A stretch of DNA of 64,000 nt from Acidobacteriota bacterium. Its GTDB lineage: Bacteria > Acidobacteriota > CAIWXX01. The position numbers were made by a program, and so were the translations under genes. A model generated the notes under the pieces. It was not told the origin of the DNA, searched no databases, and saw only the letters and a list, made by a program, of their open reading frames with translations. How positions within the stretch are numbered: the stretch's first letter is position 1; every line of letters starts with the position of its first letter. Of this stretch, positions 27,159 through 48,885 are shown piece by piece. The stretch is from the NCBI GenBank assembly GCA_040755995.1, contig JBFMAF010000024.1:309940-373939 (forward strand), read 5' to 3'.

Positions 27159-28406
27159 CTATTGACCGAACTTCGCGATGAGCTCTTTCTTGCCTTTTCC
27201 GAGGATGTCGTACTTCTTTCCGACCTTCACAAAGGCCTCGATGGCCGCATCGAGATGGCGTTTCTCGTGGGCCGCTGAGAGCTGCGTGCGTATTCGCGCC
27301 TGCCCTTTGGGGACGACCGGGAAGAAGAACCCGACTGCGTAGATGCCCTCGCTGAAAAGATCCCGCGCGACGTCCTGGGCCAGCTTCGCGTTGTACAACA
27401 TGACCGGCACGATCGGGCTCTCCCCTTCTTTCAGATCAAACCCGGCATCGGTCAGAAGCTTTCTCCAGTAGTTCGTGTTCCACTCCAGCTTGTCGCGCCG
27501 CTCGGTCGTCCGCGAGACGAGGTCCATGACCTTGAGTGCTCCAGCGACGATCACCGGCGCCACCGTGTTGGAGAACAGGTATGGGCGGGCTCTCTGGCGG
27601 CAGAGCTCAACCAGCTCCTTGCGTCCGCTGACGCAGCCGCCGGAGGCTCCGCCGAGCGCCTTGCCAAGAGTCGTCGTGATGACATCTATCTTGCCCACGA
27701 CTCCGCAGTGCTCATGCGTGCCGCGCCCGGTCTTGCCCATGAACCCCGACGCGTGGGAGTCGTCGACGAAGACCATGGCATCGTACTTCTCGGCCAGAGC
27801 GACGATCTCGTCGAGCTTCGCTACGTCGCCGTCCATGGAAAACACTCCGTCGGTGATGATCAACCGGTAGCGCTTATCCTGGTGCTCTTCGAGCTTCTCT
27901 TGAAGATGCACCATGTCGGAATGCTTGTAGCTGTCCTGCATGGCCTTGCACAGTCGCATGCCGTCGATGATCGAGGCGTGCACCAGCCTGTCCGCGATCA
28001 TCACATCCTGATCGCCCAGGATCGCCTCGAACACTCCGGCGTTGGCATCCATGCAGGATGGGAACAGCAGCGTGTCCTCCGTCCCCAGAAACGCGGTCAG
28101 CCTGGCCTCGAGCTGGCGGTGGATGTCCTGCGTGCCGCAGATGAAGCGGACCGACGACATGCCGTAGCCGCGGTAGTCGAGCCCATCATGCGCCGCCTTG
28201 ACCACATCCGGATGACTCGACAGCCCGAGGTAGTTGTTCGCGCACATGTTGATGACCTTCTTGGTCGAGGACCCGACGGGGAACTCGACCTCGATCTCCG
28301 CGCCCTGCGGCGCGTGTATGTAGCGCTCCTCTTTGAAGAGACCGGCGTCCTTCAGTCCCGCCAGTTCGCCCTGATACGTCGTTCGAGCCTTGTCGCTGTA
28401 TGCCAC
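27159..28406 (-). CDS. kbl: Glycine C-acetyltransferase-like alpha-oxoamine synthase (divergent paralog)
   Basis: [52 protein letters not shown]. Confidence 0.88.
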   Translation of the reverse strand: MAYSDKARTTYQGELAGLKDAGLFKEERYIHAPQGAEIEVEFPVGSSTKKVINMCANNYLGLSSHPDVVKAAHDGLDYRGYGMSSVRFICGTQDIHRQLEARLTAFLGTEDTLLFPSCMDANAGVFEAILGDQDVMIADRLVHASIIDGMRLCKAMQDSYKHSDMVHLQEKLEEHQDKRYRLIITDGVFSMDGDVAKLDEIVALAEKYDAMVFVDDSHASGFMGKTGRGTHEHCGVVGKIDVITTTLGKALGGASGGCVSGRKELVELCRQRARPYLFSNTVAPVIVAGALKVMDLVSRTTERRDKLEWNTNYWRKLLTDAGFDLKEGESPIVPVMLYNAKLAQDVARDLFSEGIYAVGFFFPVVPKGQARIRTQLSAAHEKRHLDAAIEAFVKVGKKYDILGKGKKELIAKFGQ

Positions 28407-30739: not shown

Positions 30740-31945
30740 TCAGCCCTTGACCACGCCGTAGGCCCGGCCGACCTTTGCGAACGCCTCGATCGCGCGATCG
30801 AGCTGCTCGCGAGTATGCCCGGCCGATAGCTGGACCCGTATTCTCGCCTGGCCCTTCGGGACCACCGGGTAGCTGAATCCCACCACATAGATCCCCTCCG
30901 CCAGAAGATCGCGGGCGATGTCCTGGGCGAGGCGCGCGTCGCCGAGCATGATCGGCACGATCGGATGCACGCCCTGCATGATTTGGAATCCGGCCGCCGC
31001 CATGCGCTCGCGGAAGTACTTCGTGTTCGTCATGAGACGGTCGCGGAGGTGCGTGGAGTGGGAGAGGAGATCGAGAACGGCGAGGGAGGCTCCGACGATG
31101 ACCGGCGACAGCGTATTGGAGAAGAGGTATGGCCGCGATCGTTGTCGCAGCAGCTCGATGAGGGGCTGGCGCCCCGAGGTGAAGCCGCCCGCCCCGCCTC
31201 CGAGCGCTTTCCCCAGTGTCGAGGTGATCAGATCCACGCGGCCCATCACGCCGCAGTGCTCGGGCGTGCCGCGGCCGGTTCGACCCATGAAGCCAGTTGC
31301 ATGCGAATCGTCGACCATGACGATGGCTTCGTATTCCTCGGCCAGGTCGCAGATCCGGTCTAGCCTGGCGATGAAGCCGTCCATCGAAAAGACCCCGTCG
31401 GTGGCGATCAGCCGTATGCGGCGGTTCTGGGTCGCCTGCAGAAGCTGCTCGAGCTCCTCCATGTCCCCGTTCGCGTATCGGTGTCGTTCGGCCTTGCACA
31501 GGCGGATTCCGTCGATGATCGAAGCATGGTTGAGCGCATCCGATATGATCGCATCCTCGCCGCCCAGCAGAGCCTCGAACAGCCCGCCGTTGGCGTCGAA
31601 GCAGGACGAATAGAGGATCGTGTCATCCGTGCCGAGAAACATCGAGATGCGTTGTTCCAGCTGCCTGTGGATGTCCTGAGTGCCGCAGATGAAGCGAACC
31701 GACGAGAGCCCGAATCCGCGGCTGTCCAGGGCAGCCTGAGCCGCGCGGACGATGTCCGGATGAGACGAGAGGCCGAGGTAGTTGTTCGCGCACAGATTGA
31801 TGACCGTGTCGGCCGCCTCGCCGTGCTGCACTCGTATCTCTGCCCCTTGTGGAGAGACAATGGTACGCTCCGTCTTGCGCAACCCCGATTCCTGGATCTC
31901 CTTCAGGGCCGTGCCATAGATCCCCCGGGTCCGCCTGTTCAGCAT
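30740..31945 (-). CDS. kbl: Glycine C-acetyltransferase (2-amino-3-ketobutyrate CoA ligase), canonical-looking
   Basis: [59 protein letters not shown] before MLNRR. Confidence 0.93.
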
Positions 31946-32108
31946 CCTGGCCTCCTCACGCGCGTCGTTCTGCCCCGGCATTCGTAGCCGCGACTGTGCA
32001 CCAGCAAGTCAGGCTCATTCTAGCACAGGGCGGGGCCGCACTGGCTGCGTTGGCGCGCGTCTGTTATTGCAGACGGCCGATCGATTCCGCTAGAATCGAG
32101 CAACTACG

Positions 32109-43549: not shown

Positions 43550-43581
43550 AGCGCCCGTTCGTACGGCTATGAGTTGCAGTG

Positions 43582-43696
43582 CTTATCCAGAGAGGTGGAG
43601 GGACCGGCCCTGTGAAGCCTCGGCAACCCGGCAGCGCACCCATCAGCTGCCATGGTGCCAATTCCGGCAGACCCCCGGAGGGATCTGGAAGATGAG
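43582..43696 (+). ncRNA. SAM-I (S-box) riboswitch
   Basis: CTTATCCAGAGAGGTGGAGGGACCGGCCCTGTGAAGCCTCGGCAACC...GGTGCCAATTCC...GGAAGATGAG; upstream of methionine biosynthesis genes. Confidence 0.95.
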
Positions 43697-43948
43697 ACAC
43701 GCTGGAATGATCATGCCTGCCTCCTCAGCCCGCGTCCAGCGCAGCTGAGGAGGCAACCGCATACCCGACGCGCTCCTACTCGGAGAGGTCGTCGGGACAC
43801 CTGCCCGCTCGCCGGCAGGAGCACCCTGAGAGGGCGCTCGGGCGGCGCCTGAGCGATTTGCGGGAAGTTCTCGCAATCTCGAGAGGGAGTCTCTAATCGA
43901 AACAAAGCGAGCTTTCGAGAGAAGAGTCTGAACACGAGGAGAAACAAG

Positions 43949-45133
43949 ATGGCTGATCACTATTCGACACAGGCAGTACACGCAGGCGAAGATCGACGGA
44001 AACCCTGCGGGGCACTCACCACTCCCGTCTACCATACCTCCACCTACACGTTCGCCGACACCGGCGAGATTCTCGAATTCATGCGGCGGAAGAGCGCCGG
44101 TGACTGGCCGTTGAGAGACGAATACGGTAGATACAGCAATCCCACGCAGAGCGCAGCTGAACGCAAGCTGGCGGCTCTGGAACGGGGTGAACGCGCGCTG
44201 CTGTTCGGGAGCGGTATGTGCGCGATCACCACCACGTTGCTGACGTTTCTTTCCGCCGGTGACCACATGGTCATGGCAAGCGATGCCTACCACCGCACCA
44301 AGGATTTCGCACAGATGTTTCTCACGCGCTGGGGAATCGAGACGACGATGGTGCGGATCGGCCGGCCTGATGAGATCGAGGCTGCCATGCGGCCGGCGTC
44401 ACGGTTGCTCTTCGCCGAAACCCCGACGAATCCATACTTGCGAATCGCCGACATCGCACGGCTGGTCGAGATCGCGCGGCGCAGGAACGTGCTGAGCGTC
44501 ATCGACAGCACGTTTGCCACGCCTATCAACCTGCGCCCACTGGAGCTCGGTGTCGATCTGGTCGTCCACAGCGCGACGAAGTACCTTGGAGGACACAATG
44601 ATCTCCTTGCCGGCGTCGTCGTGGGGTCGCACAGGCTGGTGGCACAGATCGAGAAGACGAGAGGTGTCGTGGGTGGAGTGAGCAACCCACATGACGCATA
44701 CCAGCTCATCCGAGGGCTGAAGACCCTGGAGCTGCGAGTTCTCCGGCAGAACGAGAGCGGGCTGCGGCTCGCGCGCTTCCTGGAGAGCCATGGCTCTGTC
44801 GAGCGCGTCTACTACCCGGGGCTCGCAAGCCATCCCGACCACGATCTGGCGAAGCGGCAGATGACCGGGTTCGGCGGGGTCGTCAGCTTCGAGATCAAGG
44901 GGGACTTCTTGAAAACAGGCCGGTTCATCGACGCCCTGCGACTACCGTTCGTCGGGCCGACGCTTGGAGGAGTCGAAAGCGTCGTCCAGCAGAACGCGGT
45001 CCTTTTCTCGCTGGATCCGGCCGAATGGCGGGCCGGAGGCATCACGGACAACCTGGTGCGATACGCGATCGGCATCGAAAACGTCGAAGATCTCATCGCA
45101 GATTTGGATCAGGCACTGGCCCAAATCGGATAG
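43949..45133 (+). CDS. metB: Cystathionine gamma-synthase / trans-sulfuration PLP enzyme (plant-CGS-like motifs)
   Basis: EYGRYSNPT, SGMCAI, ETPTNP, DSTFATP, HSATKYLGGHND, FGGVVSF. Confidence 0.85.
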   Translation: MADHYSTQAVHAGEDRRKPCGALTTPVYHTSTYTFADTGEILEFMRRKSAGDWPLRDEYGRYSNPTQSAAERKLAALERGERALLFGSGMCAITTTLLTFLSAGDHMVMASDAYHRTKDFAQMFLTRWGIETTMVRIGRPDEIEAAMRPASRLLFAETPTNPYLRIADIARLVEIARRRNVLSVIDSTFATPINLRPLELGVDLVVHSATKYLGGHNDLLAGVVVGSHRLVAQIEKTRGVVGGVSNPHDAYQLIRGLKTLELRVLRQNESGLRLARFLESHGSVERVYYPGLASHPDHDLAKRQMTGFGGVVSFEIKGDFLKTGRFIDALRLPFVGPTLGGVESVVQQNAVLFSLDPAEWRAGGITDNLVRYAIGIENVEDLIADLDQALAQIG

Positions 45134-47751: not shown

Positions 47752-48885
47752 GTGAAATACGCGAAGTATGGGCCTGCGTCGTTGAACGGGCTCTTCGGTG
47801 ATTTCGTCATCTACCGGAACCTCGTCCCGGCCGATCCACGTGTGCCTGCGATCGCTGAGCTGCGCGACCGCCTTGGCCTCGATCGTGGATATCTGCCGAG
47901 GAAAGCGGAGCCGGCGTACGGGGCTGTCGTGGCGACGATGATACGGGCCGCGCGGCATATCGAGGCGCCCGGGACGGCTGTGCGTTGCCTACTGTATGTT
48001 GGCGACACCCTGATGAACGACGGCACGGCGTTCAAGAGCATCTGCGCGGCAGGCGGATGGCAGGGCCGGGCGTTCATCGGCCGGGACGATCTGAGCCGTG
48101 CACGACAGATCGATGTGGACGGGTCGATTTACCTGTCGAACCGCTGGTCCGCCCTTCACGAGTTCGTCGACTCGGTTCAGGCTGATGGCTTCGGCCGGGA
48201 CGAAGCTACGGTGATGGTTGTCGACATGGACAAGACGGCGATCGGAGCGAAGGGGCGCAACGACGGAGTGATCGATGAGGCCCGCCTGGAGGCTGTCGAC
48301 CGGACGGTCCGACACCTCCTGGGCCCGCGATACGACGAGGCGGTGTTTCGTGAAGCCTATGACGAACTGAAGCAGGCACCCTACCACCGCTTCACAGCCG
48401 ACAACCAGGACTACCTCGTCTACATCTGCCTGATGATCGGAGCGGGGCTTTTCGAAGTGAAGCGTCTGGTGGACGACGTGACATACGGATCGATAGGAGG
48501 CTTCGGCGAGTTTATCGCCCAGGTTGACGGGAGACGCCATGAGCTGGCGAATACCGGCCTGCTAAGCGTTCATGACGACATCTGTAGCCGCTTTCGGCAT
48601 GACGATCCGACTCCGTTCAAGATGTTCAGGTACACCGAGTATCTGACGACGGCTGCGCGGTTCGGGGACATGGTGGAACGGGAGGCGGAGCAGGTGCTGG
48701 CAGAGCGGATCGCGGTCACCCAGGAAGTAAGGGAGGTGGTGGATGCGGTGAGGGACTGCGGAGTACTGGCCTTCGGAGTCTCGGACAAACCGGATGAGGC
48801 AGCCGTGCCGACCGGCGATCAGGTGCGATCCGGAATGAAGCCGCTCCACCGCCTGGACACCGTTGCTATCGGGGAGGCGTGCTGA
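47752..48885 (+). CDS. Hypothetical protein with HAD-like motifs in permuted order
   Basis: GGAGG RBS, GTG start; PRK, YVGDTLMND, VVDMDKT, GVSDKP. Confidence 0.7.
   Translation: MKYAKYGPASLNGLFGDFVIYRNLVPADPRVPAIAELRDRLGLDRGYLPRKAEPAYGAVVATMIRAARHIEAPGTAVRCLLYVGDTLMNDGTAFKSICAAGGWQGRAFIGRDDLSRARQIDVDGSIYLSNRWSALHEFVDSVQADGFGRDEATVMVVDMDKTAIGAKGRNDGVIDEARLEAVDRTVRHLLGPRYDEAVFREAYDELKQAPYHRFTADNQDYLVYICLMIGAGLFEVKRLVDDVTYGSIGGFGEFIAQVDGRRHELANTGLLSVHDDICSRFRHDDPTPFKMFRYTEYLTTAARFGDMVEREAEQVLAERIAVTQEVREVVDAVRDCGVLAFGVSDKPDEAAVPTGDQVRSGMKPLHRLDTVAIGEAC

Follow-up and report, generated by a model that had tools for sequence, protein, structure and literature searches.

The last gene of a SAM-regulated operon in an Acidobacteriota genome encodes an enzyme (hereafter X) that we propose makes O-phosphohomoserine (OPHS) from homoserine via a phospho-Asp158 intermediate. 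We put the probability that X supplies OPHS in this way, rather than removing it, at about 0.8; the reaction, its direction and its phosphate donor are what we infer from the motifs, fold pattern, gene context, regulators and distribution observed here. X represents a real HAD family that carries no name, has an apparently permuted core and probably fills the homoserine kinase gap. Its gene lies in the window, i.e., the whole 64,000-nucleotide stretch of DNA that was analysed, together with the features collected in Table 1.

Table 1. Operon features and HAD motifs of X in the window (residue numbers refer to X).
Feature	Position	Strand	Remarks
SAM-I riboswitch (RF00162), operon leader	43580..43698	+	81.2 bits, cut-off 44.4
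Plant-type cystathionine gamma-synthase-like PLP enzyme (CGS), 394 aa	43949..45133	+	likely O-phosphohomoserine user
Aspartate kinase (AK), 489 aa	45149..46618	+	TIGR00657, 348.6 bits, cut-off 208.7
Aspartate-semialdehyde dehydrogenase (asd), 347 aa	46615..47658	+	TIGR00978, 434.3 bits, cut-off 301.2; start overlaps AK stop
X, candidate homoserine phosphotransferase in place of ThrB, with a putative circularly permuted HAD fold	47752..48885	+	GTG start, 377 aa
HAD motif III equivalent P49-R50-K51	47896..47904	+	lines up with the region around motif III in a Gph-like HAD from the window genome
HAD motif IV equivalent YVGDTLMND, G84-D85-T86...D90 (G84 at 48001)	47995..48021	+	Mg2+ site by analogy
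HAD motif I VVDMDKT, D158-x-D160-K-T (D158 at 48223)	48217..48237	+	by analogy, D158 as nucleophile and D160 as acid/base
Helical C1-type cap, residues 171-318	48262..48705	+	predicted secondary structure
HAD motif II equivalent GVSDKPDE, S344-D-K-P-D-E (S344 at 48781)	48775..48798	+	

The operon is ordered SAM-I–CGS–lysC–asd–X, with X as the last of four genes. The sequence-only reading had described it as SAM-regulated, and the SAM-I riboswitch as well as the CGS, aspartate kinase and asd genes upstream of X all proved to be real. A promoter-like site was not found, nor was a terminator-like one between asd and X; the 250 bases that follow the SAM aptamer in the leader (43699-43948) contain several stable hairpins (z -3.7 for 43570-43960), and a terminator-like site was not found there either. 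Structure work on tobacco CGS is said to assign OPHS specificity to its (E/D)YGRY and H/R-R/K segments. The window enzyme carries EYGRY and Y-H/R-R/K, plant-like versions of both segments occur in 18/18 full-length X-linked CGSs and in 0/4 paralogs of the window genome, and the best PDB match of the window CGS is tobacco CGS (1i41/1qgn) at 379.8 bits, ahead of 327.6 for the next entry and 226.6 for E. coli CGS. This evidence backs the earlier assignment of the CGS as plant-type. In the plant route, CGS joins OPHS and cysteine to cystathionine, as described in PMC11350084. The window operon shares with that route the CGS type and the proposed OPHS substrate but differs in being bacterial, in having a SAM-I riboswitch, its own AK and asd and a proposed OPHS source other than ThrB, and in residing in a genome without thrC.

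The window genome (99.84% complete) contains one X and two hom genes. Profile searches of it found no thrB (the only match is IspE), thrB_alt, ThrH, MetA or thrC, and by cut-off its ApgM-like protein counts as iPGM, not as HomK. The window CGS should need OPHS, and with thrB, thrB_alt, ThrH and HomK searched for and not found, X is the one candidate source. Since thrC is missing, methionine is the only visible use of OPHS in this genome. Two family relatives (G001, G002) likewise yielded neither thrC nor thrB; for these three genomes without threonine synthase, threonine uptake or synthesis from glycine may apply. An LtaE-like motif occurs on contig C3 of the window genome. Within the window, two Kbl-like (2-amino-3-ketobutyrate CoA ligase type) PLP enzymes (27159-28406 and 30740-31981, both on the minus strand) flank an acyl-CoA synthetase-like ORF; in 6 X loci (best 80 of 460), a similar gene is found after thrC in opposite orientation. 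The genome further encodes SerC, two SerA-like genes below cut-off, a MetH-like frame, a possible sulfhydrylase paralog and a MetX-like gene above one model's cut-off, the last two making an acyl-homoserine route possible. The MetX-like gene (L234, G000:C18:138000-145752) lies apart from methionine genes: its neighbours encode an AprA MT2-like methyltransferase, a sulfotransferase and a TPR protease, and no SAM riboswitch was found in that stretch.

The HAD assignment of X builds on four motifs that had been recognized from the DNA as PRK (47896), YVGDTLMND, VVDMDKT and GVSD. All four positions match, and the motifs are conserved in relatives and hence are not chance strings: R50, K51, G84, D85, D90, D158, D160, S344 and D345 are invariant in 120/120 close relatives, and each is retained by 68-73 members of a diverse set of 73 representatives, i.e., the proteins of 330-410 aa out of 150 among the matches listed (K51 71/73, G84 73/73, D85 71/73, D90 72/73). 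The motif I DxD (D158-x-D160) follows a strand at 153-158 and is kept in 72/73 diverse representatives, while S344 of motif II follows a strand at 339-343 and is S or T in 78/78 loci (best 80 of 460). In canonical HADs, the linear order of the motif scheme is I-II-III-IV. X shows III-IV-I-II instead, and a simple pattern test found the order IV<I<II in 177/192 full-length relatives. X is therefore regarded as a permuted derivative rather than as a canonical HAD member.

Structural comparisons point in the same direction. The AlphaFold2 model of X (pLDDT 93.1, pTM 0.90) combines an alpha/beta core with a helical insert (residues 171-318) right after the DxD strand, in agreement with the cap-like insert that had been noticed behind motif I. 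Conserved cap residues (T215, D217, N218, Q219, D220, R293, E296) form a candidate amino-acid-binding surface. Among 48,161 chains compared with VIA, the best match of the whole model was the HAD phosphatase 6iah (Z 7.6, rmsd 3.9, 150 aligned residues), a score below the secure level, with X 153-371 superposed on residues 1-166 of the chain. For the model of X 1-150, 12 of the 50 matches listed could be assigned to HAD phosphatases from their title or known family (Z 4.0-4.8), tied with unrelated folds and preceded by five non-HAD rows. In eight of these twelve, X 1-146 lies on the C-terminal half of the HAD at weak Z (e.g., 2w4m 113-244, 3k1z 123-247, 2hoq 105-234), and in the other four the ranges begin at residue 20-33 and reach the C-terminus. 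For X 151-377, 7/7 non-self Atlas rows were HAD clusters, with TM values of 0.32-0.43 by query that are below the secure level. Alignment of the family profile with three single HADs of the same genome by hhalign gave probabilities of 2-17%, all of them crosswise, with X 48-97 on the C-terminal motifs, X 152-168 on motif I and, once, X 318-349 on motif II. Weak Pfam matches in divergent members agree with the crosswise order (P0250: 54-86 on the HAD_2 end, 247-327 on the middle of PF00702). Foldseek searches with the whole model and the N-terminal part, as well as a VIA re-check of the Foldseek list, placed no HAD among the matches listed, an outcome to be expected of a permuted fold that speaks neither for nor against the assignment.

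Each structural score is weak, but the pattern is consistent and, together with the motif conservation, supports the permuted HAD proposed from the sequence. The chain appears to have been cut between motifs II and III with the old ends joined near residue 150, and the crosswise alignments suggest that the motifs meet at one site in three dimensions. The closest parallels are C1-cap HAD phosphatases (human NANP 2w4m, HDHD3 3k1z, PH1655 2hoq, beta-PGM-like 3kbb), whose C-terminal halves align with X 1-146; the motif I and II regions of X match N-terminal halves of HADs. Compared with these enzymes, the halves of X are swapped, identity is 13-16% and the cap comprises ~150 residues.

The family comprises at least 2,536 proteins at E<=0.001 (7,999 candidates scored), reduced to 398 representatives by clustering at 50%; where named at all, they are called “hypothetical” only. 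The Atlas clusters closest to X are mostly from Chloroflexota and carry no Pfam family. X itself matched no NCBIfam or Pfam family at E<=1, PF00702 was hit by merely 2/120 family members in a Pfam search, and sequence searches of Pfam, NCBIfam and PDB with X, its alignment or its halves returned nothing useful; retroviral capsid rows (E 0.1-1.8) were rejected as chance. We attribute this escape from family searches to the permuted core. All seven relatives of 661-2000 aa are fusions of X with AK that share 78-88% identity and form a single clade in the X tree. Several divergent homologs (P0232, P0234, P0239, P0240 and P0267 with 576-620 aa, P0218 with 816 aa) have 200-430 additional aa at the N-terminus that match no Pfam family, together with altered motifs (DxDQT or DxDHT, SDRP), so that a different function is possible. 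In one record (P0139), possibly an assembly artefact, X is joined to a JAB-domain protein; JAB proteins have a role in sulfur-carrier pathways.

The gene context ties X to the pathways of methionine and threonine. Locus counts are based on the 80 best loci among 460 relatives that were confirmed in the genome collection, a selection that leans to close relatives. Among loci of this set with enough flank, AK lies upstream of X in 43/54, asd in 42/54 and either of them in 48/54, which confirms the link to Met/Thr genes, whereas CGS (14/49) and hom (5/49) are less frequent there. Downstream, thrC is found in 25/54 loci, and thrB is nearby in 0/54; CGS upstream and thrC directly downstream never occur together (all best 80 of 460). 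Two operon types occur, AK/asd-X-thrC and the arrangement of the window, SAM-I plus plant-type CGS-AK-asd-X. They follow the X tree: 20/20 CGS-linked proteins, including that of the window, fall into one 25-member clade (support 99), and thrC-linked proteins lie outside it. In the unrooted tree, the window protein is surrounded by CGS-type proteins that come mostly from Chloroflexota, a position suggestive of module transfer. In eight loci (L048, L049, L051, L054, L057, L069, L076, L078), X is directly followed by one or two YdjM-like membrane genes, which precede thrC where it is present. The relative G001, a case that counts against the proposed role of X, has AK-X in a locus that begins at a contig end, and thrC was not found in this genome.

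Regulatory elements sort with the operon types. SAM-I precedes CGS in 8/9 loci scanned and in 4/4 further CGS-bearing stretches. A T-box stands before hom-lysC-asd-X-thrC in two close relatives (L029 and L033; 2/9 and 2/10 in overlapping scanned sets), where the specifier position reads ACC (Thr) from the alignment, and none was found in the remaining scanned X loci. Between them, these elements would place X operons under the control of Thr and SAM, the two products in which the OPHS branch ends.

The gene with which X alternates is thrB. We sampled 201 genomes of the Anaerolineae, the class of G021, with a completeness of >=90% requested. X occurs in 95 and thrB above cut-off in 68; both are present in one genome (G207) compared with 32.1 expected, X alone in 94, thrB alone in 67 and neither in 39 (Fisher p 3.6e-24, a value overstated by kinship). 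The steps before and after are present, with hom in 181/201 and thrC-like genes in 197/201 genomes. Among the 178 genomes with both hom and thrC, which include kin that are not independent, the counts are 1 with both (31.6 expected), 87 with X only, 63 with thrB only and 27 with neither; these 27 may reflect incomplete assemblies or another homoserine kinase. None of X, thrB and ThrH was detected in 36/201 genomes. Other known families are rare in the sample (thrB_alt above cut-off 0/201, HomK 1/201, ThrH-like 13/201, of which 11 above cut-off).

The alternation recurs along the phylogeny. A RecA tree was computed for 110/201 genomes, of which 30 were given as loci by the tool and 80 chosen among the X or thrB genomes listed; one copy was used for each of 19 genomes with two recA copies. 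On this tree, at least 10 switches between X and thrB are needed, or 9 when the two-copy genomes are left out, and 4-5 of the changes are forced by starred branches. An independent-pairs test on starred branches was underpowered (5 pairs, median p 0.5) and never gave the opposite direction. In the window genome's own phylum, 21 genomes include 4 with X, 8 with thrB and 0 with both. A thrB gene accompanies X in three genomes, namely G207 and two from outside Chloroflexota (G024, G025).

Taken together, X exhibits the marks of a non-orthologous homoserine kinase, i.e., complementarity with thrB as well as clustering and co-regulation with enzymes that use OPHS. The sequence-only reading had left open whether the enzyme supplies or removes OPHS. 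The exclusion of thrB, the failure to find another homoserine kinase family in the window genome and the induction of the operons by Thr or SAM shortage favour supply.

One alternative places X in OPHS supply without letting it act alone: it might make or relay the donor for ThrH, HomK or another enzyme, or serve as a partner subunit of AK. The ThrH family occurs in 10/95 X genomes and 0/68 thrB genomes, so that 10/13 ThrH genomes (G044, G056, G086, G095, G119, G127, G150, G158, G178, G185, G203, G204, G209) have X. HomK, which exceeds the TIGR02535 cut-off in both cases tested, lies directly behind X and before thrC in five loci (L036, L038, L045, L059, L060). We considered that X might be degenerate where HomK is present and rejected this idea, as all catalytic residues are intact. 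Together with the three genomes that combine X and thrB, these cases leave room for a helper, and the AK-X fusions would suit a partner subunit. However, 83/95 X genomes have no thrB, ThrH, HomK or thrB_alt, the window genome has neither ThrH nor HomK, and each of the favourable cases comes down to one clade: the HomK loci, the fusions and the ThrH genomes in the RecA tree (G044, G086, G150, G203). We consider a helper role improbable.

Still less probable is a plain phosphatase, whether it acts on OPHS, stands in for SerB or clears a phosphorylated side product of the aspartate pathway. Phosphoester hydrolysis is the role of most HADs according to PMC6957218, ThrH itself is also a phosphoserine phosphatase (PMC1079889), and the DxD fits a phosphatase and a transferase equally. 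An enzyme that removes OPHS should, however, accompany thrB, yet the overlap is 1/201, and it would be futile in operons switched on by Thr or SAM shortage, which makes removal unlikely; moreover, the identified neighbour clusters of X include no serine-pathway gene. Replacement of homoserine dehydrogenase, or a route from aspartate semialdehyde that bypasses homoserine, could explain why hom is upstream in so few loci while AK and asd nearly always are, but is hardly credible: hom is present in 89/95 X genomes (64/68 thrB genomes), for which reason its replacement by X was rejected, and X has HAD phosphoryl-transfer motifs and, in its model, no nucleotide-binding domain.

We thus favour X as a Mg2+-dependent HAD-type phosphotransferase with a permuted core that would carry out the homoserine kinase step in genomes without ThrB. 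By analogy with HAD chemistry, Asp158 would accept the phosphoryl group from the donor and Asp160 would act as acid/base, while Lys51, Ser344, Asp85 and Asp90 would hold phosphate and Mg2+. The cap would bind the amino-acid part, such that homoserine and not water is phosphorylated. In most Anaerolineae, OPHS from X would pass on to ThrC, for which it is the substrate. In the subfamily of the window, SAM-I–CGS–lysC–asd–X would form a methionine module whose plant-type CGS uses OPHS.

The identity of the donor is a more tentative matter. Phosphoserine is a possible though not a probable candidate, and the same holds for the group of other compounds such as ATP, PEP or PPi, of which ATP is less likely because no separate nucleotide-binding domain is seen in the model. 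Aspartyl-phosphate seems somewhat unlikely, although the tie to AK and a match in shape suggest it: phosphate would come from the product of the neighbouring AK, a near match of OPHS that differs at carbon 4 alone. Consistent with this reading, 7/7 long relatives are AK fusions (one clade), AK directly precedes X where asd is missing in 8/76 loci (best 80 of 460) and also in G001, G084, G205 and G207, and a SerA-like hit is absent throughout one clade of four X genomes. The SerA profile, however, separates neither group, as such a hit (E<=1e-100) is missing in 9/95 X genomes and about as often in thrB genomes (8/68), and the window genome has SerC; phosphoserine is therefore still available as donor. 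The full proposal that X is an aspartyl-phosphate:homoserine phosphotransferase, and that AK and X together act as a two-part homoserine kinase, is accordingly a doubtful one.

ThrB has several known replacements, namely type II ThrB, ThrH, HomK/ThrB2 and the DvMF_0971 type (PMC5764234, PMC1079889, 10.1101/2024.10.14.618325). The step proposed for X is that of ThrB (GHMP, TIGR00191), type II ThrB (TIGR00938) and the shikimate-kinase-like DvMF_0971, which are ATP-dependent kinases with folds other than that of X (for DvMF_0971, see PMC5764234). X matched none of TIGR00191, TIGR00938 and TIGR02535 at E<=1. Closer in chemistry is ThrH of Pseudomonas aeruginosa (TIGR02137), a ThrB replacement with a HAD fold and a C1-type cap that, according to PMC1079889, makes OPHS from phosphoserine, not ATP. 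Formation of OPHS by a phospho-enzyme mechanism is likewise proposed for X. In comparison with ThrH, X has no TIGR02137 match at E<=1 (cut-off 223.4 bits) and is 377 aa long versus 203 model positions; its cap is much larger, its core is permuted, and it can share a genome with ThrH. HomK/ThrB2 (TIGR02535; BT2402) is described as a phosphotransferase with a donor other than ATP, guessed to be phosphoserine (10.1101/2024.10.14.618325, Appendix 3), and is, as proposed for X, a non-orthologous ThrB replacement beside AK, hom and thrC. Judged by sequence, X belongs to neither the ThrH nor the HomK family, though it is proposed to work like them.

Missing thrB is one of four steps behind most amino-acid gaps in prototrophs and concerns 16/208 genomes in GapMind 2026 (10.1101/2024.10.14.618325), the main text of which contains neither “Chloroflex” nor “Anaerolinea”. 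Our literature search, which covered titles and the starts of abstracts in mostly open-access literature, returned no account of the X family, of a permuted HAD or of an aspartyl-phosphate donor. X thereby becomes a testable homoserine kinase candidate for 95/201 Anaerolineae and for scattered genomes of other phyla, organisms that current annotation would call threonine or methionine auxotrophs since X is missed by family searches. Its fold would moreover exemplify natural circular permutation in the HADs, for which no earlier description was found in the literature searched. If the aspartyl-phosphate reading is true, a naturally permuted HAD would catalyse a reaction not described before, phosphoryl transfer from aspartyl-phosphate to homoserine, and this reaction would drive the synthesis of threonine in roughly half of the sampled Anaerolineae and the SAM-regulated, plant-type methionine route here. 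The SAM/CGS subfamily of X probably provides OPHS for this plant-type route, and in the operon of the window X would complete a bacterial, riboswitch-controlled version of it.
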